Program-made: the position numbers and the translations under genes
In this document: positions 21,206 through 37,710 of the stretch, piece after piece
Position numbering within the stretch: the stretch's first letter is position 1
Layout: every line of letters begins with the position of its first letter
The notes under the pieces: model-generated
Told to the model about the DNA's origin: nothing
What the model saw: the letters and a program-made list of their open reading frames with translations, nothing else
Database searches by the model: none
Assembly: GCA_045647355.1 (NCBI GenBank)
Contig: JAZRMF010000001.1
Location: forward strand, 350,679 to 414,678
Source of the DNA: Candidatus Enterousia sp.
Lineage (GTDB): Bacteria > Pseudomonadota > Alphaproteobacteria > Rs-D84
Direction of reading: 5' to 3'
Length of the DNA stretch: 64,000 bases

Positions 21206-21239
21206 ATAAGGCAAACAAACGAAAATGGGGGGATATTCC

Positions 21240-21788
21240 ATGCAAACAAAAACATTATTCGCATCAGTAATCGCGGCATTGGCGATTGTGCCGGCATTCG
21301 CGGCCGACCCAACACCGGGTGATAAAACGGTGACATCGGTTGGTTATGTGACACGTACACGTCAACCAATAATTGAGGCAAAACAAGGGGATTACGTTGT
21401 TATGTATCCGAACGATGATAACGGCGATGCCGATGGCGAAGTCCAAGAACGTGGCATTATCACGAATGTCTATAATTATGACGAAGGTAATGAATTGGTG
21501 ACGGTCGGCGGTGTGAACACGGCATTGGCGGAAAAGCAAGATGCGATACCGGCGGGCACATCGGGTAATTTGGTGACATATAACGGTCAATCGGGTTCGG
21601 TTGGTTCTGCGGCGGTGTATAATGCGACCGGCACGTACAACAGCCAAACAGGTTCCCTGGTCCAGGCCCAGCATGTAAACACCGCGGCGCAAAATGCGTT
21701 TAATGCGCATGTGACATGTTCTAATCCCCCAGATTGCACATTATGGACAATAAATGAATTGTCGGGGACATATGTACCACATAATTAA
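21240..21788 (+). CDS. secreted protein, N-terminal paralog of the DGR target protein (no VR)
   Basis: GGGGGGA RBS and signal peptide MQTKTLFASVIAALAIVPAFA. TSVGYVTRTRQPIIEAKQGD aligns with TSVSYVTRTTQPMLEAKSGD of the 21814 protein. Confidence 0.65.
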   Translation: MQTKTLFASVIAALAIVPAFAADPTPGDKTVTSVGYVTRTRQPIIEAKQGDYVVMYPNDDNGDADGEVQERGIITNVYNYDEGNELVTVGGVNTALAEKQDAIPAGTSGNLVTYNGQSGSVGSAAVYNATGTYNSQTGSLVQAQHVNTAAQNAFNAHVTCSNPPDCTLWTINELSGTYVPHN

Positions 21789-21813: not shown

Positions 21814-22827
21814 ATGAAACGAATAATATCCATAATTGCAATGACGGTGGCGATACCATGTGTTGCCATTGCGGATAATGAACCGTCACCAACAACGACA
21901 ACATCGGTTAGTTATGTGACGCGAACGACCCAACCAATGTTAGAGGCAAAATCCGGGGATAAAGTTGTGACATACGGCACAACCAATGGTGTGGTTGGCA
22001 CGCGTAATGTATTGGACGATTTGGACGGCACGACGACAACAGACCCGAACCTTGCCACCGCCGAGGCATTAGAGATGGCCATAGGTGAAAAACAGAGTGA
22101 GTTTATAAACCTGTCGAATCGTAATGTTTTGACATATACCGGGTCGCAATATAATGTGACATCTACACCAATATATGACGATACGGTAAATACATTTGCG
22201 AATGGTTTGGTTGATGCGGCGACATTAAATACGGCGGTAACGGATGCGGCAAATGCCGAATTCACCCAGGTTGATGAAAACGGTACCCCCAGTTCAAACG
22301 GTTTATTGTGGCGAATAAATGATGCGCCGGCGGCGACATTGGGTGTGGATGCGAACCTGCCGGCGAATATTGCGGGAACCTCATATTGTTATAAAAGGCA
22401 TAATGGCCAGAATGGCAGTGCAGGTAATTGTGGCAGCACGGTATATAATGCCATGCAAAAGGGTGAATGGGGCACGGTGTTTCCGTATGGCACGGTTACG
22501 GGGATAAGTGTGTGCAGCAATATCGAACCATCGGTACAATATGGTACCGGTGATGATAAATGGTACCAGTATGGTCAGGTATCAACGAATCAAAGCGGTG
22601 TGCAATCGCAATATGACACATGGGTATCGAACGGTCGACCGGCGACGCCCGTGGGTGGATATTGCTATTGCAAGTTAACAAATCCATCAATTTCGGCGGC
22701 GCGTTGGGTGTTCAGGCTCTCGGACTCCGTTTCGAACTGTGCGCTCAACTGTGCGAACTTCTGCGCGAGCCGCGTCCAGCGCGGCTCCGATTTCCGGGGC
22801 GCTGTGTTCGGGGCGGCCGCAAATTGA
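21814..22827 (+). CDS. DGR target protein: secreted protein whose last ~43 codons are the variable region (VR)
   Basis: RBS GAAAGGGGGA and signal peptide MKRIISIIAMTVAIPCVAIA. C-terminus …RWVFRLSDSVSNCALNCANFCASRVQRGSDFRGAVFGAAAN. The VR is 130/130 alignable to the TR with differences only at TR adenines. Confidence 0.85.
   Translation: MKRIISIIAMTVAIPCVAIADNEPSPTTTTSVSYVTRTTQPMLEAKSGDKVVTYGTTNGVVGTRNVLDDLDGTTTTDPNLATAEALEMAIGEKQSEFINLSNRNVLTYTGSQYNVTSTPIYDDTVNTFANGLVDAATLNTAVTDAANAEFTQVDENGTPSSNGLLWRINDAPAATLGVDANLPANIAGTSYCYKRHNGQNGSAGNCGSTVYNAMQKGEWGTVFPYGTVTGISVCSNIEPSVQYGTGDDKWYQYGQVSTNQSGVQSQYDTWVSNGRPATPVGGYCYCKLTNPSISAARWVFRLSDSVSNCALNCANFCASRVQRGSDFRGAVFGAAAN
22691..22820 (+). repeat. 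DGR variable repeat (VR)
   Basis: 130-nt copy of TR 22985..23114 with 15 mismatches, every one at a TR adenine (A to G, C or T). Its 3' 50 nt are identical to the TR. Confidence 0.9.
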
Positions 22828-22887
22828 TGTATCGGTATAGCCAATAAAATGTAGCACATTTTATTGGCGATCGTACGGGTGGGGTTT

Positions 22888-22906
22888 GGGGCGGGTGTCC
22901 CGCCCC
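22888..22906 (+). other. GC-rich hairpin (8-bp stem ggggcggg/cccgcccc, 3-nt loop) downstream of VR; candidate DGR target-recognition hairpin
   Basis: Perfect 8-bp G/C stem 67 nt after the VR end. Comparable to the hairpin beside the VR in characterised DGRs. Confidence 0.45.
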
Positions 22907-22984
22907 AGTAAGAAGATTCCCGATGTAACACGGGAATAGGTTGTATCGCCGTATTCAGTTGCGTGCGTTGAACGTTGGTCGTTC

Positions 22985-23114
22985 TTTCGGCGGCGCGTTG
23001 GGTGTTCAAGAACTCGAACTCCGTTTCGAACTGTGCGAACAACTGTGCGAACAACTGCGCGAACAACGTCCAGAACAACTCCGATTTCCGGGGCGCTGTG
23101 TTCGGGGCGGCCGC
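22985..23114 (+). repeat. DGR template repeat (TR)
   Basis: The invariant copy is AAC-rich (…gcgaacaactgtgcgaacaactgcgcgaacaacgtccagaacaac…). It encodes N at the positions that vary in the VR and lies between the target gene and the RT. Confidence 0.9.
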
Positions 23115-23358
23115 TCCTTTGGGTGTGATTAGTAAAAAGGAAACTTTTTCGCCAACCTGCGGGACAAAGTGCATGGGCACTTTTCAGATGCGTAAAAAAC
23201 ATCTGTTTTAATACCTTGTTACATCAAAAGGTGGGGTGGTACGACCTGTGATGATGATATGGGATTTGTCCCATGTCCGTCCAAATACAAAACGCAGGGG
23301 ATGTTTGGGCCAGTAGTGGGTTCTGTATCGTCGCGAACGCCCGGAACATCCGATTGTA

Positions 23359-23703
23359 ATGGAATATAAAATGACATTGGATGAAATAGAACACCTTAAT
23401 AAAACAACATGTCCACGATTTGCCAATTTTGCACGTGAACAGTTGCCTATGCCGGGTGTAAAAAAATACCTTAATGATATTTTAAATCGGGAAATATTGG
23501 TTACAGATTTTAGAATAACAAAATCTAAACGCCGTGAAGGAACCGAATGTATGCAATTCCAATTCAAATTGGATGATACAATTTGTGTTGCCTTCACCGG
23601 CAGTGCCGTTTTAATGGACCAAATGCAAACCGCACGGGATGGCGGTAATATGCCTTTCGTTGGAACAATAGTCAAAATAGATAAATATTTTTCTTTTTCG
23701 TAA
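23359..23703 (+). CDS. small ORF immediately upstream of the RT, candidate DGR accessory protein
   Basis: 114-aa ORF on the same strand whose stop lies 7 nt before the RT ATG. Its position suggests an accessory gene, but no sequence feature recognisably matches Avd. Confidence 0.35.
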   Translation: MEYKMTLDEIEHLNKTTCPRFANFAREQLPMPGVKKYLNDILNREILVTDFRITKSKRREGTECMQFQFKLDDTICVAFTGSAVLMDQMQTARDGGNMPFVGTIVKIDKYFSFS

Positions 23704-23709
23704 ATCGCC

Positions 23710-24723
23710 ATGAAAACATACAATAACCTGTGGGAACAGTTCATTTCTGTTGAAAATTTTGAATTGGCTGCACGCAAGGCTGTCAAAAGCAAAAAATCAA
23801 AAAAATCGGTGCAAAAATTCCTGCGTAATAAAGATGTGCTGTTGAAAAAACTGCGACAGCAACTGATAGAAGGCAAATTCAAAACATCAGAATACAAGAC
23901 TTTTGTCATACACGAACCAAAAGAACGTGTCATATATAAATTGCCCCTGTATCCCGACCATATATTGCATCACGCGTTGATAAATGTGTTGGGACCGATT
24001 TGGCAAAAAATGTTTATACATGATTCTTATGCGTGCATACCGGGACGGGGATTGCACGCCGCATCAAAACGCACCATGGATTTCGTTCGCAGAAATAAAT
24101 ACGTGTTGCAATGCGATATAAGAAAATTCTATCCAAGTATAAATCATAATAAAATGATGGAAATTATCGCCCGAAAAATAAGCGACAGACGAATACTTAA
24201 AATACTTGATGAAATTGTGCGTTCGGTCGGCGGGGAAACAAACCTGCCGATTGGTAATTTGACAAGTCAATGGTTGGGAAATGTCTATCTTAATGAACTT
24301 GACCATTTTGTTAAAAGTGAACTGCGATGGCGGGATTATATTAGATATTGTGATGATTTTTGCCTGTATGGGAATGATAAAAATACCCTAAAACATATGG
24401 CACAAAAAATTAAAGTTTTTATTACGGATGGTCTAAAACTTGTGTTTTCACGCAGTATCGTGCGCCAGACGGTTTTTGGGGTGGCGTTTGTCGGGTACAG
24501 GCATTTTAAGAATTTTATATTGCTTAAAAAATACGCTGCACGAAAAATAAAACACAGAATTATGAATATAATAAATCATTCGGATATCAGTGAACACGCC
24601 ACCGGGCAAATTGCTGCGTTCTGGGGGTGGGTCCGATGGTCGTGTTCGTATAATTACTGTCGAGGGTTCGTTGGAAAAAAAGGGGAAAATAAAAATCTTT
24701 TACCCTTTTTTAATTGGATTTAA
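23710..24723 (+). CDS. DGR-type reverse transcriptase
   Basis: RT motifs YKLPLYPDHILHHALI and PIGNLTSQWLGNVYLNELD (the DGR-typical I-G-x-x-T-S-Q rather than QG…SP), plus a YCDD catalytic box. ~337 aa with no maturase or endonuclease domains. Confidence 0.9.
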   Translation: MKTYNNLWEQFISVENFELAARKAVKSKKSKKSVQKFLRNKDVLLKKLRQQLIEGKFKTSEYKTFVIHEPKERVIYKLPLYPDHILHHALINVLGPIWQKMFIHDSYACIPGRGLHAASKRTMDFVRRNKYVLQCDIRKFYPSINHNKMMEIIARKISDRRILKILDEIVRSVGGETNLPIGNLTSQWLGNVYLNELDHFVKSELRWRDYIRYCDDFCLYGNDKNTLKHMAQKIKVFITDGLKLVFSRSIVRQTVFGVAFVGYRHFKNFILLKKYAARKIKHRIMNIINHSDISEHATGQIAAFWGWVRWSCSYNYCRGFVGKKGENKNLLPFFNWI

Positions 24724-25954: not shown

Positions 25955-27667
25955 GTGTTATATCCAGAGAAAGCAGAAAAATCTATGTTAACGGATGTTG
26001 TTGATTTTTTTCCGGATATTCAAAGCATAAATCCAACCAAGTATACGGGATTTGTGCTGTTTTGTGATACCGATAAAGAGGCCGTGGCCATACAATACCA
26101 ATTGACGCATGATTTTAATATGCCTTCGAGTTTAGATATTGATTATTATGGCGCGCGTTACATTGTGCCGTTGGAAGATGTGGATGCGGATGTTGCATTA
26201 AAATTTATTCGCCGTGGTTGGAGTTGGGATCGTGACCAGCAATTCAACCGGTATTTAATCACACTGTACAGTGAAGATGCCGCAAATAAAATCTATGATA
26301 TAATGATTGCGCATGGATATAACGTGACGTTATCACCCAATAAAATGCAATTGGTTGTAAAGTGCATAGCAGATTCCCCGCGGAATACCGCCATCACAGA
26401 ATTAAAACGTGAATTTGATACCTTTGAAAGAAAGTCGCCAAAATCCATAGACGATTATTTCAACAAAATTTTATTTAATGGCGTAATAGAAAACCCAGAA
26501 TATCGTAAAGTTCGCGAACAAAAATTTTCGCCCGAAACAATTAAACAAAACAAAGATTTAATTATTCGTGAAATCGTGTATAGATATTTTAACATTATAA
26601 TTTACGCCTATTTGACTTGTCCAAAATTCGATGCAAACAAATTAGATGACACAACAATACAAAACATAAATCTTGTGCGCGACTTTTTGTGTTCTGTGGC
26701 GGACAAATATATCGATACACAAATAGATGTCGCAGGCAAGGCATCACAACAACCAACCATTAATTTTGGTTGTCTGACAACGTGCAGGGAATACGATAAT
26801 TTCAACAACGTATTAAACCTTGCCAAGAAGTGGCACCGTGCAGATATAAAGAACGAAAGGGCAGAAAACCGCAATATCCGTATGTCACAACGATGGGCAT
26901 ATAAATTGATGGATTTGAATGATGGCTATTATATCGTTTGTCTGGGGGGGCAAGAAGCATTAGATTATGAAAACCGGACATTAAAACACCCCGTTGAAAT
27001 ATTTTATCAAGATGATATTTACGAAGGAATCGCCAGATATTCTATACGCAAAGGATACACGCCAATTCTGACATTGAAAGTAGATAATGACAAAGTGGTT
27101 AGATGCTATGGCTATGAAAATGTCGTTCCGTGTGATAGTACTCTGCGCGCGGTGGTGCGTACGTTTATGCGGGAACGTGAGTTAACCATCCCCGATAACA
27201 GCTGGAATAAATTAATCGGGTACATAAAGAAAAATGGCAAACTATATGACATAGATAATTTACCCAAAGGTTTTATATTAGATGATATATTGAACTTGGA
27301 AGAAATGGGCCTGAAAAAATTACCTGATATGTCAACGGTAAAGGTAAATGGTCATCTTTTGTTACATGGTAATAATTTACATGACCTGAAAGGGGCGCCA
27401 TACAGGGTTTCGGGAAACCTTGATGCCAGTGGAAATCCGTTAGAATCGCTATACGGATTGCCACGTGAGATTGGTGGACTGATTTTGTTGCCAAAAGATA
27501 AATTAACCGCTGAATCATTTGTGCCATTGTATATCGAAGACAAATTGAAAAAGGGTGATGTTCTGGGCGTGGATGAAACGGTTAGCACCGCGTGGCAAGA
27601 TCAAATCGAACAAAGAAAAATTGGCATTGCAAATATAATTGCATCCTTGCGTGATAGAAACCAATAA
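25955..27667 (+). CDS. hypothetical protein with C-terminal leucine-rich-repeat-like region
   Basis: 570 aa. …LDDILNLEEMGLKKLPDMSTVKVNGHLLLHGNNLHDLKGAPYRVSGNLDASGNPLESLYGLP… resembles LRR units. Confidence 0.5.
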   Translation: MLYPEKAEKSMLTDVVDFFPDIQSINPTKYTGFVLFCDTDKEAVAIQYQLTHDFNMPSSLDIDYYGARYIVPLEDVDADVALKFIRRGWSWDRDQQFNRYLITLYSEDAANKIYDIMIAHGYNVTLSPNKMQLVVKCIADSPRNTAITELKREFDTFERKSPKSIDDYFNKILFNGVIENPEYRKVREQKFSPETIKQNKDLIIREIVYRYFNIIIYAYLTCPKFDANKLDDTTIQNINLVRDFLCSVADKYIDTQIDVAGKASQQPTINFGCLTTCREYDNFNNVLNLAKKWHRADIKNERAENRNIRMSQRWAYKLMDLNDGYYIVCLGGQEALDYENRTLKHPVEIFYQDDIYEGIARYSIRKGYTPILTLKVDNDKVVRCYGYENVVPCDSTLRAVVRTFMRERELTIPDNSWNKLIGYIKKNGKLYDIDNLPKGFILDDILNLEEMGLKKLPDMSTVKVNGHLLLHGNNLHDLKGAPYRVSGNLDASGNPLESLYGLPREIGGLILLPKDKLTAESFVPLYIEDKLKKGDVLGVDETVSTAWQDQIEQRKIGIANIIASLRDRNQ

Positions 27668-27736: not shown

Positions 27737-27810
27737 TGGGGCATAGTTTAATGGTAGAACATCGGACTCTGACTCCGCTAGTATTGGTTCGAATCCAGTT
27801 GCCCCAACCA
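27737..27810 (+). tRNA. tRNA-Gln (anticodon CTG)
   Basis: Cloverleaf with a 7-bp acceptor stem tggggca/tgcccca, anticodon loop CTCTGAC, T-loop GGTTCGAATCC, and an encoded CCA. Confidence 0.85.
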
Positions 27811-27902
27811 TAGTTTCAAAACTTACCTGTTTGGGCAAGTTTTTGTTGGGAATATAAGTATTTCAACAAGTTTAAGTCTGAAGTATATCAAAGGTGGTTT
27901 AT

Positions 27903-28538
27903 ATGAAACAGGATTTCTATATATTTAGACATGGTCAAACCGATTACAATGTAGAAAAGAGAGTCCAAAGTTTCTTGGATATACCGCTAAACAGTAATGG
28001 AATTGCACAAGCACAGGTGTTGGCCAAGAATTTATCAAATGTGCAATTTGATTGTATATATAGTTCGACATTATCCAGGGCTTTGGATACTGCAAAAATT
28101 GTTTTGGGTGACAAAAAAGTGCAAATTATAACTGACCCGGGCTTACGCGAAAGAAACCTTGGGATACTGTGTGGCAAGATAATGAATCTTACAGATGCAC
28201 CAGCAGATACATTGGTTGACATGAATAAAGATAAAATAGATATGCCTGCGGCTCTTTTATTTAATGGTGATTATGCGCCGGAAAATGGTGAAAGTGATAA
28301 TATGTTCGTTCAGCGTGTCTGTGATACGATAACAAAAATTGCCAAAAATACAAATGCCAGGACCGTTGGCATCGCAACCCATGCCGGGGTTATTAGTGTT
28401 TTTGTTCGGCGTTTTACCAATTTCAATTTTAGTAGTATGCCAAATGCAGAATACATCAAAATGCAATGGGACGGGGAAAAATTCAGTTTACCAGAACCAC
28501 CAGATTGGTTGCTACAAACACAATCAAACCAGAAATAG
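27903..28538 (+). CDS. histidine phosphatase (phosphoglycerate-mutase-like) family protein
   Basis: RHGQTDYN catalytic motif near the N-terminus. AAGGTGG RBS before the ATG at 27903 (the ORF track starts at a GTG at 27894). Confidence 0.75.
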   Translation: MKQDFYIFRHGQTDYNVEKRVQSFLDIPLNSNGIAQAQVLAKNLSNVQFDCIYSSTLSRALDTAKIVLGDKKVQIITDPGLRERNLGILCGKIMNLTDAPADTLVDMNKDKIDMPAALLFNGDYAPENGESDNMFVQRVCDTITKIAKNTNARTVGIATHAGVISVFVRRFTNFNFSSMPNAEYIKMQWDGEKFSLPEPPDWLLQTQSNQK

Positions 28539-28634
28539 TTTATCTTTCATCTCTTCAATCTTTTGCCCGATTTTGATTATGTCGGTTTGCGAATTGCCCA
28601 GACAAGTGCAACCACAGTTCCCAAACTTGCCCAC
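28524..28634 (-). CDS. small ORF (36 aa, GTG start) embedded in repeat module copy 1: MGKFGNCGCTCLGNSQTDIIKIGQKIEEMKDKLFLV
   Basis: Against copies 2 and 3, substitutions fall at codon positions 1 and 3 with none at position 2, and indels are multiples of 3. Its 3' end overlaps the convergent phosphatase gene. Confidence 0.35.
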   Translation of the reverse strand: MGKFGNCGCTCLGNSQTDIIKIGQKIEEMKDKLFLV

Positions 28635-28745
28635 CGGGGCAAGTTTTTATTTATTTTCCAATACCTACAAAAAGTTCAAAAGTTTAAAACATTGTGATTT
28701 TTCGCCACTTTTGAACCCCAGAAAAAAACGGTTCTTGTAATGGTA
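28539..28745 (+). repeat. intergenic repeat module, copy 1 (conserved core 28539..28625 plus hairpin and T-run 28626..28652)
   Basis: The core tttatctttcatctcttcaatcttttgcccgattttga…tcggtttgcgaatt…caaccacag aligns with 30461.., 31990.. and 32695... The distal part (cgccacttttgaac…ggtactataaat) also recurs after copy 2. Confidence 0.7.
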
Positions 28746-29525
28746 CTATAAATATTTATTTTTATTCTGTAAAAGTTTATCCAGTATATCTATTGGTATG
28801 GGTTTTCGATTATCAATATCGCCATACATCCCAAGTTCCCTGTTTATTTTGCTCGGGCTGTGATAATCACTGCCGCCACTGACCAACAAATCATTTTTTC
28901 GTGCTAAATCTGTAACAAAATCTGTATATTCATCTGTTTGGCCGGACTGATATACCTCTATACCATCGATTCCGTATTGTTTTAGTTCGCAAATAAATTC
29001 TTGCAAATTATTACTATCAATGCCTTTTGTCCTGTTTGGGTGTGCCAATATCGCCAAACCGCCAGAACGATGAATCATATCTATTGCCTCGCCATATCCA
29101 AACGGCGGTTGCAGAAAATGTTCAATAACAAATGTTTTGTCTGAACCCTTGTCGGTATCAATCATCATTTTTATAAAAGCATCCCTGGCACCAATCAGTG
29201 TTTCATATTTTCCCTTGGTATAACCATAGTTTTTTAGCGATTGTTCTATGTATTCCCTGCGTATGGCGGCTTTGTTATTTATCTCGTCAAACCGTTTTAG
29301 AAATAATCCGATAATGTGTGTATTTCTTTCACAAGAAACCTCTATCCCATTTATAAAGTTGATACCGCATTGCTCTGCCGCTTTTGCCGCCGCATGCAAT
29401 CCATCGACATTGTTATGATCTGTTAAAGCAATATATTTTAGTCCCTTTTTGGTGGCCAAATCAACCAATTCACTTGGGGACAACGCCCCATCCGAAGCAT
29501 TACTGTGCGTATGAAAATCTATCAT
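28746..29525 (-). CDS. PHP-domain phosphoesterase
   Basis: MIDFHTHSNASDG… and C-terminal GGSDYHSP metal-binding motifs of the PHP (TrpH/YciV-like) family. Confidence 0.8.
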   Translation of the reverse strand: MIDFHTHSNASDGALSPSELVDLATKKGLKYIALTDHNNVDGLHAAAKAAEQCGINFINGIEVSCERNTHIIGLFLKRFDEINNKAAIRREYIEQSLKNYGYTKGKYETLIGARDAFIKMMIDTDKGSDKTFVIEHFLQPPFGYGEAIDMIHRSGGLAILAHPNRTKGIDSNNLQEFICELKQYGIDGIEVYQSGQTDEYTDFVTDLARKNDLLVSGGSDYHSPSKINRELGMYGDIDNRKPIPIDILDKLLQNKNKYL

Positions 29526-29597
29526 TCTAATCTCTTTTTTTCTTTACATTCATTTGGGGCATTATATCATAGAAACCAACAATGAAAAGGTTTTATT

Positions 29598-30365
29598 ATG
29601 ATAATTGGTATGGTCAGATACGCAATCCCGAACAGTTTTATGAATTCGAATAATTCGCGTTCTTTGGTGCAATTATATGAAGATCCATATTTTTCAGACC
29701 GGTTTAATATCTTTCGCAATATAACACTGCCATCATTTGCACAGCAAACAAACCAGGATTTTACCCTGTGTGTATATCATACGAACTTGATTCCAGATGA
29801 TAAAAAGGTATTGTTTGATAACCTTGCCAAACAATATCCATTCCTAAGAAATGTTTACACAGCCGGCAAAATGGACATTCCGGATGATTTGAAAGAACGG
29901 CAAATGCTGACATTCCGAATAGATAATGATGATGGCATGGCCTTGGATTTTATTGAAAAATTGCAACAAATCAAAGAAATCGTTGGGAATAAAACATCAA
30001 ATTTTGCGATCAGCATTCCACATATGCGAAAAATCGCCAGGATTGATAATTTTTTGTATCAAACATTGGAAACGGATTTTATATCAAATTCTATGGGCTT
30101 AGCGTACCTTGGGAACGATGGGCGCACTGTTATGAACCTGGGTAATCATACCAAGGTTGCTTATTCCACCCCAATGCTGATGGTTGCCGGCAATGGCGGT
30201 CTGCAAGTGATAAATGGTTATAATGTGGCCAATGGTTTTAAGAAAGTATATCAAAACCAATCGGATATGGCTATTTTGAATCAAAAAGATATGCAAGATC
30301 TGCTGGTCAAAGACGGATATGCCAAAATGGATTTATCTTGCCTGCCAATCATAAAATCCAGATAG
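29598..30365 (+). CDS. hypothetical protein (possible GT-A-like fold; DNDDG motif)
   Basis: 255 aa with RBS AAAAGG. No confident family assignment. Confidence 0.5.
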   Translation: MIIGMVRYAIPNSFMNSNNSRSLVQLYEDPYFSDRFNIFRNITLPSFAQQTNQDFTLCVYHTNLIPDDKKVLFDNLAKQYPFLRNVYTAGKMDIPDDLKERQMLTFRIDNDDGMALDFIEKLQQIKEIVGNKTSNFAISIPHMRKIARIDNFLYQTLETDFISNSMGLAYLGNDGRTVMNLGNHTKVAYSTPMLMVAGNGGLQVINGYNVANGFKKVYQNQSDMAILNQKDMQDLLVKDGYAKMDLSCLPIIKSR

Positions 30366-30437
30366 TGTTTGTGTATTTTGCATATTACATATTTTTAACT
30401 TATTGCCCACACAGGCATAATTTATTAATAAAATTAT

Positions 30438-30524
30438 TTAATACAGATTCGGTAAACCTAATTTATCTTTTACTTCATCAATCTCTTGCCCGAATTCTAA
30501 CAACTCGGTTTGCGAATTACACAT
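30438..30524 (-). CDS. small ORF (28 aa from ATG; 36 aa from an upstream TTG) in repeat module copy 2: MCNSQTELLEFGQEIDEVKDKLGLPNLY
   Basis: Paralog of the copy 1 and copy 3 small ORFs. Conserved NSQT…(I/F)GQ(K/E)I.E(M/V)K(D/E)KL. Confidence 0.35.
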   Translation of the reverse strand: MCNSQTELLEFGQEIDEVKDKLGLPNLY

Positions 30525-30662
30525 ATAGCACAACCAAAGATTCAAACACCCGAAAGGGTGTTTTAATTTTTTGTTCGGGTCGAAAGGTTGAAATTAAAAA
30601 GTGGTAAAAAAATCACCATTTTCGAACTTTTTATACTATAAAAAGTTTTATTTTTTAATGAT
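30441..30662 (+). repeat. intergenic repeat module, copy 2 (core 30461..30540, hairpin acacccgaaagggtgt plus T-run)
   Basis: Aligns with copy 1 through tttatcttttacttcatcaatctcttgcccgaattct…tcggtttgcgaattac…cacaaccaaag and the distal part. Confidence 0.7.
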
Positions 30663-31187
30663 TTATTTGTTTTTTAGGTAAAAATCCAGTGCATGATATG
30701 CACTATCAAAAGCCAAAGGTAGATCTGCTAAGTCTTGCGGATTTTCTATGGAATACCATTTTACATCAGATACTTCGTCTCTTTGTAAATTGAATTTCGC
30801 ATCATCATCAATTTTTGCAACAAAAAAAGCATCACACGTTTTGTATTGAAAATTTTTGTATTCGTATGTATTAGGAAAAGTACACAAATATTTCAAAATT
30901 GTTATATTGATACCTAATTCTTCACGACATTCACGAATACACGCCTGTTCGGTACTTTCATCGTGTTCTACAAAACCACCAGGTAAACCAAGTAAGCCAA
31001 ATTTAGGTTCTTTGGCGCGTACTTCAAATAATATTTGACCGTGGGTATTTATAATAATCACGGCGACCGCTGTTGCAGAATTATTGTATAAAACAAACCC
31101 GCAATCAGGACATTCCCATTTACGATTATTTATATTTTTGACATTTTGACCGGCACAAATAGGGCAAAATTTAAAGTCATTTTTCAT
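30663..31187 (-). CDS. NUDIX hydrolase with N-terminal zinc ribbon (NudC-like architecture)
   Basis: CPIC…CPDC zinc ribbon and NUDIX box GGFVEHDESTEQACIRECREELGI. Start taken at MKNDFKFCPICAG (the ORF track extends to 31259). Confidence 0.75.
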   Translation of the reverse strand: MKNDFKFCPICAGQNVKNINNRKWECPDCGFVLYNNSATAVAVIIINTHGQILFEVRAKEPKFGLLGLPGGFVEHDESTEQACIRECREELGINITILKYLCTFPNTYEYKNFQYKTCDAFFVAKIDDDAKFNLQRDEVSDVKWYSIENPQDLADLPLAFDSAYHALDFYLKNK

Positions 31188-31282
31188 ATAAACTGCTTTT
31201 AATAAAATTATTCCAATATAAACTAAGTTGAATAGTACAAAAAATCTATCATTTTTCAAGTTGTTATATTACAATTCAATTT

Positions 31283-31681
31283 ATGAAAGTACTTACTTTA
31301 TATCAACCATATGCGGCTGCGATAGCATTGGGCTTAAAGAAATATGAAACGCGATCTTGGGCAACATCTTATCGCGGGCTTTTGGCGATTCATACATCGG
31401 TAAAAAAACTATCGCCAGAATTAAAGAAATTAGCCGAACATTATCAAATAACAAATCTTGAATATGGAAAGATAATTGTTATTTGCGAATTGCAAGATTG
31501 TATCGAAATGACAGATTGTTTTATACAATCTCAATCAATCACGGAAAGGAATTTTGGAATTTGGACGCCAGGTCGTTTTGCGTGGAAAATAAAAGTATTA
31601 AAAATCTTGAAAGAACCAATTTCTGTTCGTGGTTATCAAAAGCTTTGGAATATAGATTTAACCGAAGAGATTGTAAAATGA
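31283..31681 (+). CDS. ASCH (PUA-like) domain protein
   Basis: MKVLTLYQPYAAAIALGLKKYETRSWATSYRGLLAIHTS matches the ASCH consensus M..L.I.QPWA..I..G.K..E.R.W.T.YRG.L.IHA. Confidence 0.6.
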   Translation: MKVLTLYQPYAAAIALGLKKYETRSWATSYRGLLAIHTSVKKLSPELKKLAEHYQITNLEYGKIIVICELQDCIEMTDCFIQSQSITERNFGIWTPGRFAWKIKVLKILKEPISVRGYQKLWNIDLTEEIVK

Positions 31682-31989
31682 TTATAACAATTTGTGGCAG
31701 TTTGAAATTTCAACAAGAAATGATAACCATAGCACAAAAGATGACTTTCAGGGGGCATTGTGTAATCACACCAATTTTCCAAACCTCTAAAAATCCAAAT
31801 TATACCGAAGAACAAATACAAAAGTTAAAAAATGCACATTTAAAAAAAATAGATATTTCTGATGCGATATTGGTTGTAAATGTAAATAATTATATCGGCG
31901 ATTCTACAAGTTTAGAGATTGAATATGCTGAACAACACAAGAAACAGGTGTTGTATTATACAAACCTTATGCGAGAATTAGAAAAATAA
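31678..31989 (+). CDS. hypothetical small protein (103 aa); possibly nucleoside 2-deoxyribosyltransferase-like fold
   Basis: The ATG overlaps the upstream stop (ATGA). The ORF track's longer form 31483.. overlaps the ASCH gene in another frame, so 31678 is preferred. Confidence 0.45.
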   Translation: MIITICGSLKFQQEMITIAQKMTFRGHCVITPIFQTSKNPNYTEEQIQKLKNAHLKKIDISDAILVVNVNNYIGDSTSLEIEYAEQHKKQVLYYTNLMRELEK

Positions 31990-32094
31990 TTTCTCTTTCA
32001 TCTCATTAATCTCTTGCCCAATCTGAATCAAATCGGCTCGCGTTTTGCTAGCATCCCACAACCAAGATAAAATAAAAATATCCCATCGGGGCAT
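31978..32094 (-). CDS. small ORF (38 aa from MPRW…; ORF track gives a 93-aa form 31978..32259) in repeat module copy 3: MPRWDIFILSWLWDASKTRADLIQIGQEINEMKEKLFF
   Basis: Paralog of the other small ORFs, two codons longer (in-frame indel). Its C-terminus overlaps the convergent 31678..31989 gene by about 12 nt. Confidence 0.35.
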   Translation of the reverse strand: MPRWDIFILSWLWDASKTRADLIQIGQEINEMKEKLFF

Positions 32095-32148
32095 TTTTTT
32101 GCATTTCTGCATTTTTTGTAATACAGTGGAACAAAAGAGGTAATTTCC
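31990..32148 (+). repeat. intergenic repeat module, copy 3 (core 31990..32066)
   Basis: tttctctttcatctcattaatctcttgcccaatctgaatcaaatcggctcgcgttttgc…ccacaaccaag aligns with copies 1 and 2. A T7 run at 32094-32100. Confidence 0.7.
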
Positions 32149-32694
32149 ATGCAAGAATTGTTGAGTTTTCCACAAATCATAAAATCGGCCCGATTGGTGT
32201 TGAGTGTGGTTGCGCCAACCACAGAAAATGCTTCGATGCTTTTGGACATTATCAATCAAGATCGTGATTATTTAATGGCTTGGCAAGGACACTTCGGCGA
32301 ATTAAAAACTGTTGATGATGTGATGGCATACCTGACAAAACGTGCAAACCAAATAAAAACCAACCAAGGTATGTGCTTTTACATTTTTCACAATAATATT
32401 ATTATTGGTCGCATTCAGTTCTTTGGTGTTGAAAATAATGCCTGCGAAATAGGATATTGGTTGATAAAATCTGCAAATGGTAGTGGGTTTATGAGTGAAG
32501 CGCTGCAAGCATTAGAAGTTGAATTATTTAAATTCGGTTTTGAAAAGATTAAATTGGATATAGACAAGGGTAATACACGTTCAGAAAATCTAGCAAAACG
32601 CAATGGTTATAAATTGGAAAAAGTATTGCCTATGGCTTCTTGGGCAAAATGTGTTGGTAAATGTGATTCTTTGATTTACGTGAAAGAAAAATAA
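32149..32694 (+). CDS. GNAT family N-acetyltransferase (RimJ/RimL-like)
   Basis: …ACEIGYWLIKSANGSGFMSEALQALEVELFKFGFEKIKLDIDKGNTRSENLAKRNGYKLEKV… contains the GNAT acetyl-CoA-binding core. Confidence 0.8.
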   Translation: MQELLSFPQIIKSARLVLSVVAPTTENASMLLDIINQDRDYLMAWQGHFGELKTVDDVMAYLTKRANQIKTNQGMCFYIFHNNIIIGRIQFFGVENNACEIGYWLIKSANGSGFMSEALQALEVELFKFGFEKIKLDIDKGNTRSENLAKRNGYKLEKVLPMASWAKCVGKCDSLIYVKEK

Positions 32695-32765
32695 AATTTA
32701 TCTTTCAACTGCTTATGCCCAATAATTCAGTTCGCGGATAGTGCATATTTGCGTTGCGGGCATTT
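32695..32765 (+). repeat. intergenic repeat module, copy 4 (degenerate)
   Basis: tttatctttcaactgcttatgcccaataattcagttcgcggatag… shares the copy 1 start. The antisense ORF is interrupted by TGA, leaving the remnant …IGHKQLKDKF. Confidence 0.5.
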
Positions 32766-32810
32766 TTATTTTTTTTATTTTTATGATATAATTCTCATAG
32801 AGGTGTGTTT

Positions 32811-33104
32811 ATGAAAGTCACGATTGCGCTTGTGTTATTATCCATTTATACCGTGTTGGAATTTATCGCGTATATGCCACAAATAATAAAATTATTAAAA
32901 ACTAAATCAGCCGATGATTTAAGTTTGACATCTTGGTTCACATGGATTACCGCAGATTTGTGCTATTTGGCGTATGTGTTGTTGGAAAGTCCAGAGATTG
33001 GCGTCATATTTATTTGCTCATTGGATTTGGTTTTCTTGTTGGTGGTGTTTTTATTGACGGCATGTTATCAAAAACGTAAAAAACGCAAAAGAATTCGCCG
33101 TTAA
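32811..33104 (+). CDS. PQ-loop repeat protein, SemiSWEET-like 3-TM transporter
   Basis: 98 aa with 3 predicted TM helices. PQ motif in AYMPQIIKLLKTKSADDLS, then a basic KRKKRKRIRR tail. RBS AGAGGTG. Confidence 0.6.
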   Translation: MKVTIALVLLSIYTVLEFIAYMPQIIKLLKTKSADDLSLTSWFTWITADLCYLAYVLLESPEIGVIFICSLDLVFLLVVFLLTACYQKRKKRKRIRR

Positions 33105-34507
33105 TGTGTTTTGATATTGTGGCGTTGTAAAAATTTATTTTGATTTTCAATATATCTTTCTTGGGATAATCGACCGTTATTTGACATTTGCGGCGGTAAA
33201 CTGGCGATATAATTACCGTATGCGGTATTAAAATATTTTTTATCATAATTCTTTTCTTGTGATAATCGAATTCTATCGGCATCCCGTATAGATGCAGAAA
33301 TTAGATCTGGGGCACATATATCGGTTGAATTATGATATTTAATTGCATAAACAATCTTATCTATTGTGCCAGGGAAAAGACGCTCGCTATAATTTTTTTC
33401 TAGGAATATGCGTGCGATTTCCGCACCACGTTGTGCATGTTCTGCGTCGTCATCATAATCGCCGTCATCATGTTCTTTGGGTACGCGTGCAATATCGTGC
33501 AATGCCGCCCCTAACATAATTGGAAATGGGTCGGTTCCCATCGATATGGCGATTTCAATCGCAAATTGAACGACCTGGAACGTATGTGTGTACAGGCCAT
33601 GGTATCCGTATTTTGGTTGCGTGCCGATATTTTCAATTTTGGGTAAAATTTCGTTTATAAACAATTTGGTATAATATTCACGTGCACGAACCGCAGATTT
33701 TATGACCGATGGACGAGACCGCAGATTGTTAATGTTCGACCATATCGTCTGTTTGATATCCATTGAACATGCATGAGAAGATTCTGCTTTACGTAATAAT
33801 ATTTTTTCAAACTCGGCCATTTTGCGACAAGGAAATATTTGGTAATCCGCATGGATTTCCAATGGTTCACGTGGCGTAATTTTTTGGCCCAGATCCATGC
33901 GGGCAATATTTTCTGGGCGAAATACTATGTATGATGTGTGACCACGGTCTTCACGACGGTTGGTATAATTAAATCCGTCGTATCCCAGATGTTCAAAGTA
34001 TTGAATCATACGTTGTTGATATAGATGATATCGGTTTACTTGTTCGGGTGTGTGGCATGCATGTTGTTGTGCCGTGGTATTGTATAAATTATCTGTTTGC
34101 AATTCTTTTTTTACATCTGGTGTTGGTATATGAAATGGTTCTGTAAAAATATAATCATAAAAATAGGGAATATTGTTTAATTTTAGATCATGCACAATGT
34201 GGTATAAAACCACGCATTGAAAATAGTTGATATCTGAGGCTCCACCAAAATCATCAATTTCGTATGTGTTGATCAGATTTAATTGCACTGGAATAATTTT
34301 ATATGTTGAATCGTTTTTGAATGACGGGGGCATTTGTATGGAATATTCGTGTCTTATGTCCAATGTTTCGTCTTTTTGGCATGGACATAATAGTACACAT
34401 TCTTGGGCGGCGGGATAAGAGCCAAAATGCGATAGTGGGCGGAATTTTTCAAATTCTGCCCGGGTGCCATGATAGAAAATATTATTTTGATCCAAAAATA
34501 ATGCCAT
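33101..34507 (-). CDS. HD-domain phosphohydrolase with unknown ~300-aa N-terminal region
   Basis: HTFQVVQFAIEIAISMG…LGAALHDIARV… is the H…HD signature of the HD superfamily. The N-terminal half has no recognisable domain. Confidence 0.65.
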   Translation of the reverse strand: MALFLDQNNIFYHGTRAEFEKFRPLSHFGSYPAAQECVLLCPCQKDETLDIRHEYSIQMPPSFKNDSTYKIIPVQLNLINTYEIDDFGGASDINYFQCVVLYHIVHDLKLNNIPYFYDYIFTEPFHIPTPDVKKELQTDNLYNTTAQQHACHTPEQVNRYHLYQQRMIQYFEHLGYDGFNYTNRREDRGHTSYIVFRPENIARMDLGQKITPREPLEIHADYQIFPCRKMAEFEKILLRKAESSHACSMDIKQTIWSNINNLRSRPSVIKSAVRAREYYTKLFINEILPKIENIGTQPKYGYHGLYTHTFQVVQFAIEIAISMGTDPFPIMLGAALHDIARVPKEHDDGDYDDDAEHAQRGAEIARIFLEKNYSERLFPGTIDKIVYAIKYHNSTDICAPDLISASIRDADRIRLSQEKNYDKKYFNTAYGNYIASLPPQMSNNGRLSQERYIENQNKFLQRHNIKTH

Positions 34508-36262: not shown

Positions 36263-37015
36263 TTGAGAGTTATGCGACACGCAATTGTGAATATTATTTG
36301 TATGTTTATTTGGAAAAAATCCCTGCGTGACAAGGTGCGTACCATACTTTATTATCCCCAGGTTCGTGACTATAACCAATTCGTTCGTGATTATGCGCAT
36401 CGCCATAAAATGAAAAATTGCAAGATTAAAACCAAGGTCGGTTGGATATGTTGCAACTGGGTCGTTATATTAAATGATAAACATGTGTTTAAATTTCCTT
36501 TAAAGTCGGATGGCAAGGATGCCGCAATACGTGAACAAAGGTTAACCGATGCGTTGCGTAAAGTGTCACCAATCAAGATTCCGCAAATGGAAACGATTAT
36601 TTATAAAGATATTGCGGTCCGCCGTTATGAATTTGCCCACGGTAAATTGTTTTCTGATTTGTCCCGGGCCGAGGTCGCAAAAAATGCGCAACATTTGTCG
36701 AAACAGATTGCAAATTTCTTGTACGTGTTGGGGCGTGCAGATCCACGCGAAATTGCCGATTTAAAACCAAGTGGCGCGGGCAAACCGGGGTTTTTATATG
36801 GATGGAATCATGGCGATATATGGCAGAATTTTATGGTTAATCCGAAAACGTTTGATATAACGTTCTTTATAGATTGGGAATCGGCAAATTTTGGTTCAAT
36901 GTATCCATGCCTTTATTCTGCGGACTATCATTGGGTACGATTTGGTTTCCGTGGGTTGATAGTCTATATCATGGCGGAATATGCAACAATGTATTTTAAA
37001 AAGAATTCAAAATGA
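36263..37015 (+). CDS. kinase-fold phosphotransferase (APH / Kdo-WaaP LPS-kinase-like), tandem paralog 1
   Basis: Catalytic-loop signature WNHGDIWQNFMVNP…IDWESANFG (HGD…N…IDWE). Paralog of the next gene. Confidence 0.55.
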   Translation: MRVMRHAIVNIICMFIWKKSLRDKVRTILYYPQVRDYNQFVRDYAHRHKMKNCKIKTKVGWICCNWVVILNDKHVFKFPLKSDGKDAAIREQRLTDALRKVSPIKIPQMETIIYKDIAVRRYEFAHGKLFSDLSRAEVAKNAQHLSKQIANFLYVLGRADPREIADLKPSGAGKPGFLYGWNHGDIWQNFMVNPKTFDITFFIDWESANFGSMYPCLYSADYHWVRFGFRGLIVYIMAEYATMYFKKNSK

Positions 37016-37710
37016 AAAAATTATTAGTAAATATTTTGTGTATGTTTGTTCCGGGGCGACATCGGCGGGCGATGTTGCGCGTGCGCCTTAATTATCCGAT
37101 TCGTCGTTGGACACGTTTCGCAAAAAGTTTTAGTCATAAACCCAATCCGTATGTGAAATATACTTATGGTCATCGTTGCATAAATTTTGTTGTGAACATT
37201 GATAATAAATATGTTTTTAAATTTCCATTAAAGACAGACGGTCATGAAATTTCGATTCGGGAAAAGCGTATAACCGATGCGTTGCGTCCGATATCACCGA
37301 TTAAAATTCCGAAAATGGACATAGTGGAATTTGACGGTATGGCGATTCGTAAATATGAATATGTTAATGGTGTTGGGTTTCATGCGCTGGACAGAAAAAC
37401 GCAGGATGCGCATATTGAAAGAATTGCAAAACAATTGGCGAAGTTCTTTTTTGTTGTTGGCATGTCTGACCCGCGCGAGATTCGTGATTTAAAGCCCAAG
37501 AAAAATGATAAGCCATCCATCATGCATGGTTGGAATCAAAACGATTTGTGGGATAATTTCATGCTGAACCCAAAGACGTTTGATGTTGTTGCCATGATAG
37601 ATTGGGAAGAGGCCGGATTTAACGATTTTCATCGTCGGTTTAGTGGTGGTACGGGAAATGGTTTGGCCAAGGCAACGTTGTTGCGCGAATATTTAAAATT
37701 GTTTTCATAA
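37012..37710 (+). CDS. kinase-fold phosphotransferase (APH / Kdo-WaaP LPS-kinase-like), tandem paralog 2
   Basis: WNQNDLWDNFMLNP…IDWEEAGFN. HGD is altered to NQND, so activity may differ. Overlaps the upstream gene by 4 nt. Confidence 0.5.
   Translation: MKKLLVNILCMFVPGRHRRAMLRVRLNYPIRRWTRFAKSFSHKPNPYVKYTYGHRCINFVVNIDNKYVFKFPLKTDGHEISIREKRITDALRPISPIKIPKMDIVEFDGMAIRKYEYVNGVGFHALDRKTQDAHIERIAKQLAKFFFVVGMSDPREIRDLKPKKNDKPSIMHGWNQNDLWDNFMLNPKTFDVVAMIDWEEAGFNDFHRRFSGGTGNGLAKATLLREYLKLFS

Follow-up and report, generated by a model that had tools for sequence, protein, structure and literature searches.

What are the short intergenic modules that recur among small accessory genes behind a tRNA gene of a gut alphaproteobacterium, and are the conserved small open reading frames (ORFs; mini-ORFs hereafter) on their opposite strand translated? 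We approached this question in a 64-kb stretch of DNA, the window, from a Candidatus Enterousia sp. of the Rs-D84 lineage (GCA_045647355.1, contig JAZRMF010000001.1, positions 350,679-414,678 of the forward strand; coordinates are those of the window unless a locus is named). In this window an earlier note had recognized four copies of such a module, here called m1 to m4 from left to right, had argued that they encode peptides, and had offered a mobile element, a family of convergent regulators or remnants of cassette-like gene acquisition as explanations. Directly behind a tRNA-Gln(CTG) gene there is a 5-kb run of small accessory genes separated by the four modules (Table 1). The modules are composite junctions of a cassette array and more than a simple terminator motif; with somewhat more confidence than doubt, we regard them as attachment-site-like junction repeats of a tandem array of small cassettes that has no integrase of its own and is docked at the 3' end of tRNA-Gln.

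A profile made from the best three copies recovered the solid modules m1, m2 and m3 (28527-28659, 30451-30576 and 31976-32110) at E-values of 1e-32 to 1e-37 and m4 weakly (32686-32747, E 0.0018), and a degenerate core pattern gave three matches in the window against none in 100 shuffles; the count of four copies thus stands, as does the reading of m4 as a copy decayed by a TGA, to which a deletion must be added. All four lie just downstream of the tRNA within 28.5-32.8 kb. Identity between modules is 65-90% over 120-180 nt. The modules are longer than had been described, reaching about 180 nt in m1 and m2, where they include a distal pair of inverted repeats. The same profile also matched the 3' end of tRNA-Gln with its flank (nhmmer E 1e-4), and this flank is a repeat of part of m1 (repeat D13, 27805-27847 vs 28609-28651, 77% identity).

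The genes between the modules are what differs between strains. The block of PHP and rhamnosyltransferase genes, which only the strain of the window carries, is missing between the histidine phosphatase and NUDIX genes in two related loci, L001 and L003, and L003 has an extra DUF3841 cassette inside m3, which has the 10-nt repeat TCGRCTCGCG on either side (TCGGCTCGCG and TCGACTCGCG) and comes with a right part of the m2 type. L001 is 96.7% identical to the window up to 27810, diverges thereafter and regains identity at 27881; its 1.5-kb insert, with two more genes, begins exactly after the CCA of the tRNA and replaces 70 nt of the flank. Module alleles are mosaic, for instance with an m1 left half joined to an m2 right half. 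Sister strains therefore gain and lose blocks exactly between modules, in agreement with the cassette-like gene acquisition that the earlier note had considered. The exact protein of the window's GNAT cassette occurs on 13 public contigs, which represent sister strains, and a 78% identical homologue lies inside the array of locus L058, where GNAT genes on the plus and minus strands are only distantly homologous to each other and thus do not bear on whether cassettes invert. PQ-loop-like proteins, judged similar by eye, occur as cassettes flanked by modules in L181 and L143.

A degenerate pattern scan of species-representative genomes returned mostly chance matches in GTPase and other genes, along with ten true matches, all in gut and rumen alphaproteobacterial metagenome-assembled genomes (MAGs) including Ca. 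Enterousia. Scanning metagenome contigs with a pattern restricted to the right part of the module yielded 59 loci; over all loci there are 125 module matches, up to five per locus, and within any one locus the modules are all oriented alike and in the direction of the tRNA. Between them we delineated 48 unique cassettes of 457-2195 nt (median 870), most with a single ORF, the ORFs lying on the module strand in 33 cases and on the opposite strand in 24. Among their cargo are GNATs, a methyltransferase, HD proteins, S8 and S41 peptidases, a P-loop kinase-like protein, MYG1 and a xylose-isomerase-like barrel. At least 24 loci have a tRNA-Gln gene on the same strand upstream, and in two others the array follows a tRNA-Met(CAT) (L138, 659-735; L185, 749-825; 3' end ...GCAACCA), which we take to be the initiator tRNA-fMet. 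Wherever enough upstream DNA was available (at least 26 loci), the array follows one or the other of these tRNAs, both of which end in CAACCA. In L053 and L098, from two other species, tRNA-Gln is flanked by DUF1015 and CBAH genes as it is here, and CBAH is near the array in further loci. A phage or plasmid origin was considered and set aside, a phage collection giving no megablast match and two pattern scans of viral contigs coming back empty.

Each module is built from distinct parts. A left arm of about 45-75 nt, whose minus strand together with the next segment holds the mini-ORF, is followed by a pseudo-tRNA segment, about 32 nt long and terminating in CAACCA. The last 32-44 nt up to this point give a better alignment with the T-arm and acceptor end of tRNA-Gln than shuffled sequences do (p <= 0.0015), with three small indels, including a CG inside the T-loop, and with CAACCA as the only exact match. 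At the centre of the segment we read a palindrome, CAATTC-GGYTCGC-GAATTG (also written GGTTCGCGAAC). The module as a whole is no tRNA pseudogene: ARAGORN and Rfam were negative, and the left arm, as opposed to the last 32-44 nt, is not tRNA-like (p 0.43). After CAACCA comes a hairpin whose stem appears, by reading, to be kept even where its sequence varies between copies, followed by a T-run in 82 of the 97 unique right parts; together they form a predicted Rho-independent terminator for the gene on the left. The earlier note had assigned this element to the copies in general; it is called in m1 and m2, and in m3 the hairpin is weaker and was read from the sequence. Farther right, 37 of the 97 right parts carry a pair of 9-bp inverted repeats, GTTCGAAAG ... 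CTTTCGAAC, about 41 nt apart. In the copies read in detail, the stretch framed by this pair, together with what follows it, reads as a sigma-70-type promoter (TTGTCA-17-TATAAT) with an extended -10 when the next gene is on the plus strand, and a second terminator hairpin when it is on the minus strand. A -10-like box is present in 18 of the 97, and in m4 an extended -10 box, TGATATAAT, was read before the following gene. For each of m1, m2 and m3, the right part is matched by the flank of tRNA-Gln in another genome, a different one in each case and L053 in that of m3. Right parts are thus interchangeable with the tRNA-Gln flanks of other species, which is the outcome expected from exchange at CAACCA. 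The interpretation of the earlier note is in this respect retained and extended, for the anchoring at tRNA-Gln, the pseudo-tRNA segment and the terminator, inverted repeats and promoter of the right part had escaped it.

A structured RNA offers no better account of these conserved blocks. Neither folds of single copies nor a consensus fold of 66 copies revealed conserved pairing across the module beyond the terminator, the left arm adding only a weak, G-U-rich hairpin on the minus strand. In an Rfam search of the window only tRNAs passed the gathering thresholds; a sub-threshold Gut-1 match on m2 (21.5 bits, E 0.77) was not repeated in 10 related loci.

How, then, might cassettes come and go? 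In view of the exact CCA junctions at two different tRNAs, the 10-nt repeat flanking the DUF3841 cassette and the strict co-orientation of the modules, we favor site-specific entry followed by homologous shuffling. A site-specific recombinase, which would be encoded elsewhere in the genome and would most likely be a tRNA-targeting tyrosine integrase, would move cassettes in and out through crossovers at CAACCA and within the CTCGCG palindrome; homologous exchange between modules would then add mosaicism. That homologous exchange contributes is suggested by the spread of the allele break points over several places (-72, -66, -47, -45, -20, -18, 0 and +1 relative to the CAACCA end). Several observations weigh against a dedicated site-specific process. 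The spread of break points over conserved module blocks fits general homologous recombination as well as it fits a single crossover site, and variability within the module is greatest in the bases immediately left of CAACCA, which would be odd for a core binding site. No recombinase gene was detected among the scanned ORFs of the window (no Phage_integrase match) or among the ten cassette cargo families scanned. The one integrase that the screen described below brought up is limited to three loci, and its attachment repeats are exact pieces of tRNA and not modules.

The spread of break points and the negative searches for a recombinase, along with the extent of identity between modules, also speak for a simpler scheme, in which the modules are conserved terminator and promoter spacers that provide portable homology for swaps, deletions and duplications of cassettes by RecA-type recombination, and neither a dedicated recombinase nor a defined crossover site exists. 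We regard this as possible but unlikely. Homology would have to account for arrays that begin exactly at the CCA end of both tRNA-Gln and tRNA-fMet, even though beyond CAACCA these two tRNAs share little near the junction with each other or with the modules; for the common orientation of all modules of a locus with the tRNA; and for an insertion flanked by a repeat of merely 10 nt. The arrival of unrelated genes between modules is likewise not explained by homology alone.

Screening for motifs in 312 ORFs drawn from the window and every locus brought up one tyrosine integrase, of the P4 type and with an arm-binding domain. It lies next to tRNA-Gln in L186 (2417-4120), preceded by an ORF that by our reading encodes an AlpA-like excisionase. 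A truncated copy is present in L190 (5038-6205), and L191 has a 63% identical homologue at the same position (182-1907), preceded by an HTH_17 gene; L191 also holds an inverted partial tRNA-Gln. Exact partial repeats of tRNA-Gln, of 19 nt and 44 nt, occur in L190 and L186, and together with the integrase and its excisionase-like neighbor they indicate that tRNA-Gln is a live integrase target in this clade. Nothing links this enzyme to action on the modules. We also observed that it lies on the 5' side of tRNA-Gln and is transcribed away from it, an unusual place for the integrase of a tRNA-targeting island.

Turning to the mini-ORFs, we found that the three intact ORFs give the peptides quoted earlier. 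The family has the consensus (WLCxxC)NSR(A/T)(E/D)L(L/I/V)(E/K)IG(Q/R)EI(D/E)E(V/M/F/L)K(D/N)KL over 26-33 codons (an example of such a peptide is ELLEIGQEIDEVK), and a called gene of 42 aa, P0001, is a close relative of the m3 mini-ORF. Over 21 codons the differences at codon positions 1/2/3 are 8/0/7 between m1 and m2, 8/1/8 between m1 and m3 and 8/1/9 between m2 and m3; the absence of position-2 changes between the first two copies, which had been put at 0 of about 12, is exact and stands at 0 of 15. To go beyond these few copies we used 79 unique metagenome copies that had been collected by the right-part pattern, which leaves the left arm untouched. In the minus-strand frame of their left arms the entropy by codon position is 1.00/0.58/1.27 (permutation p 0.0016), and the ratio of nonsynonymous to synonymous differences (pN/pS) is 0.51, as compared to 0.81 and 1.40 for the two remaining frames; substitutions are therefore spread unequally over the codon positions, contrary to what conservation at the RNA or DNA level alone had been expected to give. 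At the first base of NAA, NAG and NGA codons, G, A and C alternate freely, and the T that would create a stop makes up 3.6%, as compared with 30-31% in the other frames, an approximately 8-fold depletion. The frame is open over at least 14 codons in 92% of the copies, as against about 10% for the other frames, a comparison that is partly circular and is given little weight, since stops in both of those frames are already part of the consensus. Some of the copies are variants with in-frame insertions of 9 nt. The mini-ORF is thus under purifying selection, and its substitutions suggest that it evolves like a real protein, so that the coding-type constraint claimed from the window copies is borne out on independent ones; the peptide itself is probably translated.

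The coding signal has clear limits. Upstream of the WL codons all three frames are equally open, which confines it to about 30 codons and speaks against a longer N-terminal extension through the hairpins. Coding in the in-register frame of the plus strand was also rejected: by reading, it is broken by a TAA in m2 and L001, and the order of the entropies fits the minus strand. Nor do the tails of plus-strand genes use one fixed frame of the left arm, for their stops fall in all three registers. The earlier note had all three ORFs ending inside or against the stop codon of the convergent gene; the m1 and m3 ORFs do overlap the gene end, by 15 and 12 nt, and that of m2 ends 72 nt after the rhamnosyltransferase stop. 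The peptide is charged and amphipathic, with hydrophobic residues at positions 12, 15, 19, 22 and 26, a spacing that we infer to be a heptad pattern. If translated, it would give a short helical micro-protein; as a weak guess, this might be a cassette-borne accessory factor of recombination or a regulator acting at the TTCGAA-type repeats.

Four features sit uneasily with translation. We detected no conserved start codon, Shine-Dalgarno sequence or minus-strand promoter for the mini-ORF, and a hairpin immediately upstream of it may terminate minus-strand transcripts as well. In m1 the interval from the conserved NS(Q/R) codons to CAACCA is longer by one base, which shifts the frame and puts the N-terminal part out of register with m2 and m3, so that the indels are not all multiples of three, as had been stated. 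Finally, codon position 1 is nearly as variable as position 3, from which it follows that the constraint is moderate and mostly preserves residue class.

In an alternative view the left arm would be the remnant of a longer ancestral or master gene, for instance an integrase or target gene overlapping the attachment site, now untranslated in the array and with an inherited codon pattern. Attachment sites inside or abutting coding sequences are generally known, and the want of start signals or a promoter would fit. We consider this rather improbable, on three grounds. First, an exhaustive HMMER search of 1.84e9 representatives returned homologues of 30-127 aa and a profile search of 5.8e9 clusters homologues of 34-100 aa, all of them short, unannotated ORFs; as both searches return short ORFs only, the segment is no terminal part of any known long gene, no protein of more than 127 aa among the 1.84 billion representatives shares the peptide, and no master gene, whether integrase or target gene, carries it in the two collections. 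Second, synonymous divergence (pS) between copies is about 0.6, yet the depletion of stop-creating bases persists, which a decaying relic would have lost. Third, the length of the ORF is fairly constant and does not suggest random truncation. The family comprises about 65 representatives, all unannotated, and the peptide had no significant match among Pfam or PDB sequences (best E 0.067 and 0.14, in short chance stretches).

Another reading, that the module is a mobile terminator, akin to a miniature inverted-repeat transposable element or a repetitive extragenic palindrome, which inserts itself behind genes while the genes between copies are ordinary chromosome, strikes us as very improbable. 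It would suit the position of the modules directly 3' of plus-strand genes and the terminator that they carry: of about 70 copies, 46 have a plus-strand ORF of at least 80 codons whose end falls in the module or close to it, the distance to the anchor being 30-85 nt in 39 of these and at most 168 nt in the others. The copies in the window are, however, clustered in one 5-kb stretch rather than dispersed, they follow one of two tRNAs wherever this could be judged, they show no terminal inverted repeats or target duplications, and it is the genes between them that vary between strains. Equally hard to credit is a convergent pair of the type I toxin-antitoxin kind, in which the mini-ORF would encode a toxic peptide and the 3' untranslated region of the plus-strand gene an antisense antitoxin stabilizing each cassette: the geometry suits, with a small ORF that would be wholly covered by a convergent transcript sharing its terminator, but the peptide is charged and amphipathic rather than a hydrophobic membrane peptide, it had no match in Pfam or PDB sequences (the PADLOC library was not searched), and no promoter was found for the ORF.

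Among known systems, the closest to the cassette array proposed here are tRNA-anchored tandem arrays of integrative elements and their integrase-less derivatives. Such arrays are the tycheposons of Prochlorococcus (bioRxiv 10.1101/2020.12.28.424599), the ssrA islands of Dehalococcoides (PMC3146451) and the cis-mobilizable elements formed by accretion (PMC5704250). Shared with them are the docking at a tRNA 3' end; successive units separated by repeats with a segment that looks like a partial tRNA; the displacement of older units away from the tRNA; the occurrence of units without an integrase; and the character of a flexible hot spot in a streamlined genome. In contrast to them, the units here are of single-gene size (median 0.87 kb) and none carries an integrase; the repeat is a composite of 120-180 nt that evolves as its own lineage, with a tRNA-like part that has fixed indels, such as the CG in the T-loop, and is no fresh copy of the tRNA; and the junction bundles a terminator, an inverted-repeat pair, a promoter and a conserved antisense mini-ORF. 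As far as literature searches go, such a composite junction with a conserved antisense mini-ORF is undescribed.

In cassette size and cargo the array is integron-like. Integron arrays with attC sites, such as the Vibrio cholerae repeats, likewise string together numerous, mostly single-gene cassettes of 0.5-1 kb; at the end of each stands a repeat of about 100 nt, alike among the members of a lineage, and the cargo is rich in GNAT acetyltransferases and small enzymes. The array is nevertheless not an integron, the three defining features that were looked for being absent. There is no intI next to it among the scanned ORFs of the window; the attC architecture is missing, in that by reading neither strand of m2 has R''/R' core sites (RYYYAAC / GTTRRRY) and the single-copy and 66-copy folds give no conserved dyad symmetry or single-strand fold across the site; and cassette genes are not mostly co-oriented and promoterless, for they occur in both orientations and some junctions seem by reading to carry their own promoter. 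Furthermore, the docking site is a tRNA gene.

Attachment sites may also lie within coding sequence: phage Mx8 has attP inside intP and targets tRNA-Asp, and e14 and phage 21 have their att in icd. The modules resemble these in being a repeated, attachment-like segment with a codon-like substitution pattern and, in the case of Mx8, in the use of a tRNA 3' end; they differ in that no long gene continues the ORF beside any module copy and no long homologue exists in the collections searched. With IS200/IS605-type single-strand elements and their non-autonomous derivatives, the modules would have in common the insertion 3' of a short target, here CAACCA; the recreation of this target at the right end of each unit, which would yield co-oriented tandem arrays; and a subterminal palindrome about 12 nt before the right end. 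Unlike in those elements, no Y1 transposase was found among the scanned ORFs of the window, the left-end hairpin varies in sequence and looks like a terminator, and there is a second type of junction at CTCGCG.

Integrons are, to our knowledge, the only well-understood system that stockpiles single-gene cassettes. Tentatively, and with clearly less than even confidence, we propose that Rs-D84 gut bacteria possess a non-integron cassette platform with site-specific docking of single-gene cassettes at tRNAs ending in CAACCA, whose self-contained junctions comprise a terminator, an operator-like inverted repeat and a promoter and also encode a micro-protein of some 30 aa that is translated and has a role in mobility or maintenance. 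If this is true, a second and mechanistically different kind of cassette array exists, and the stockpiling of single genes evolved more than once. The array would be distinctive in being docked at a tRNA, in providing each cassette with its own terminator and often its own promoter, and in belonging to a clade whose genomes are below 1 Mb and hold few mobile elements otherwise; the upkeep of a flexible gene pool in streamlined, partner-dependent gut bacteria would thereby be explained as well. A conserved antisense mini-ORF within a recombination-site repeat is unusual and provides a concrete micro-protein candidate from a family that is invisible to current annotation.

Table 1. Array-associated features of the window
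Feature	Position	Strand	Details
tRNA-Gln(CTG)	27737..27810	+	docking site heading the array; 3' end ...CCCCAACCA; ARAGORN and Rfam
tRNA flank	27811..27880	+	hairpin and T-run, homologous to right part of m1; replaced in strain L001
Histidine phosphatase cassette gene	27894..28538	+	Pfam His_Phos_1, E 3.5e-40
m1 mini-ORF	28524..28634	-	36 aa, GTG start inside hairpin; ...NSQTDIIKIGQKIEEMKDKLFLV
m1	28539..28716	+	left arm 28539-28581; pseudo-tRNA segment 28582-28614, CAACCA 28609-28614
m1 right part			terminator hairpin 28623-28646 and T-run; inverted repeats GTTCAAAAG at 28674, CTTTTGAAC at 28708
PHP-domain gene	28746-29525	-	Pfam; cargo block 28746..30365
Rhamnosyltransferase-like gene	29598-30365	+	Pfam; cargo block 28746..30365
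m2 mini-ORF	30438..30545	-	35 aa; ...WLCYMCNSQTELLEFGQEIDEVKDKLGLPNLY
m2	30461..30627	+	left arm 30461-30504; pseudo-tRNA segment 30505-30536, CAACCA 30531-30536
m2 right part			terminator 30544-30563 and T-run; inverted repeats GTCGAAAGG at 30579, TTTTCGAAC at 30619
NUDIX gene	30663-31259	-	Pfam; cargo block 30663..31989
ASCH-domain gene	31283-31681	+	Pfam; cargo block 30663..31989
Gene resembling nucleoside 2-deoxyribosyltransferase	31681-31989	+	Pfam; cargo block 30663..31989
m3 mini-ORF	31978..32094	-	38 aa from ATG; MPRWDIFILSWLWDASKTRADLIQIGQEINEMKEKLFF
m3	31990..32101	+	left arm 31990-32032; pseudo-tRNA segment 32033-32064, CAACCA 32059-32064
m3 right part			weak hairpin CCCATCGGGG at 32082 and T-run; no distal inverted repeats
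GNAT acetyltransferase cassette gene	32149..32694	+	Pfam
m4, decayed	32695..32791	+	13-nt deletion, in-frame TGA
m4 right part			hairpin kept (ATGCCC 32715, GGGCAT 32758) and T-run
PQ-loop gene	32805..33104	+	Pfam

The Rs-D84 clade has genomes that are mostly smaller than 1 Mb, and an Enterousia MAG of this order, isolate 125_22-69, which is one of the ten true matches of the species-representative scan, is listed at 0.87 Mb (PMC12306168). The window has a G+C content of 42% and, according to Pfam scans, a housekeeping content that includes rpoA, L17, pgk, tpiA, clpP, clpX and grpE; ankyrin-repeat and YadA-anchor proteins and many ORFs without a Pfam match are also encoded. To the left of the array lie tRNA-Gln, a 570-aa ORF (25955-27667) and a CBAH-family gene, the ORF being placed between the other two. 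It is present in sister strains and missing at this position in other species, and its C-terminal part resembles, by reading, a leucine-rich repeat. As a candidate recombinase it was rejected on account of this absence and the lack of a Pfam match.

To the right of the array, a 468-aa protein (33101-34507) combines an HD domain with a sub-threshold match to ART-PolyVal, an ADP-ribosyltransferase family; its homologues lie inside the arrays of L058 and L014. Farther on, two tandem paralogues (36263-37015 and 37012-37710) share about 44% protein identity, and their homologues directly follow the last module in L040, which suggests that the intervening 32.8-36.2 kb (PQ-loop, HD/ART-PolyVal, hydrolase and GT8 genes) is accessory too. 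Elsewhere in the window, we noticed a diversity-generating retroelement (21814-24723) with an RVT_1 reverse transcriptase gene (23710-24723), a variable repeat (22691-22820) at the 3' end of the gene at 21814-22827 and a template repeat (22985-23114), the two repeats having 15 of 15 mismatches at template adenines. The 5' parts of this target gene and of the gene at 21225-21788 share a 75-nt repeat (21894-21968 and 21326-21400, 76% identity), and the two may be paralogues.

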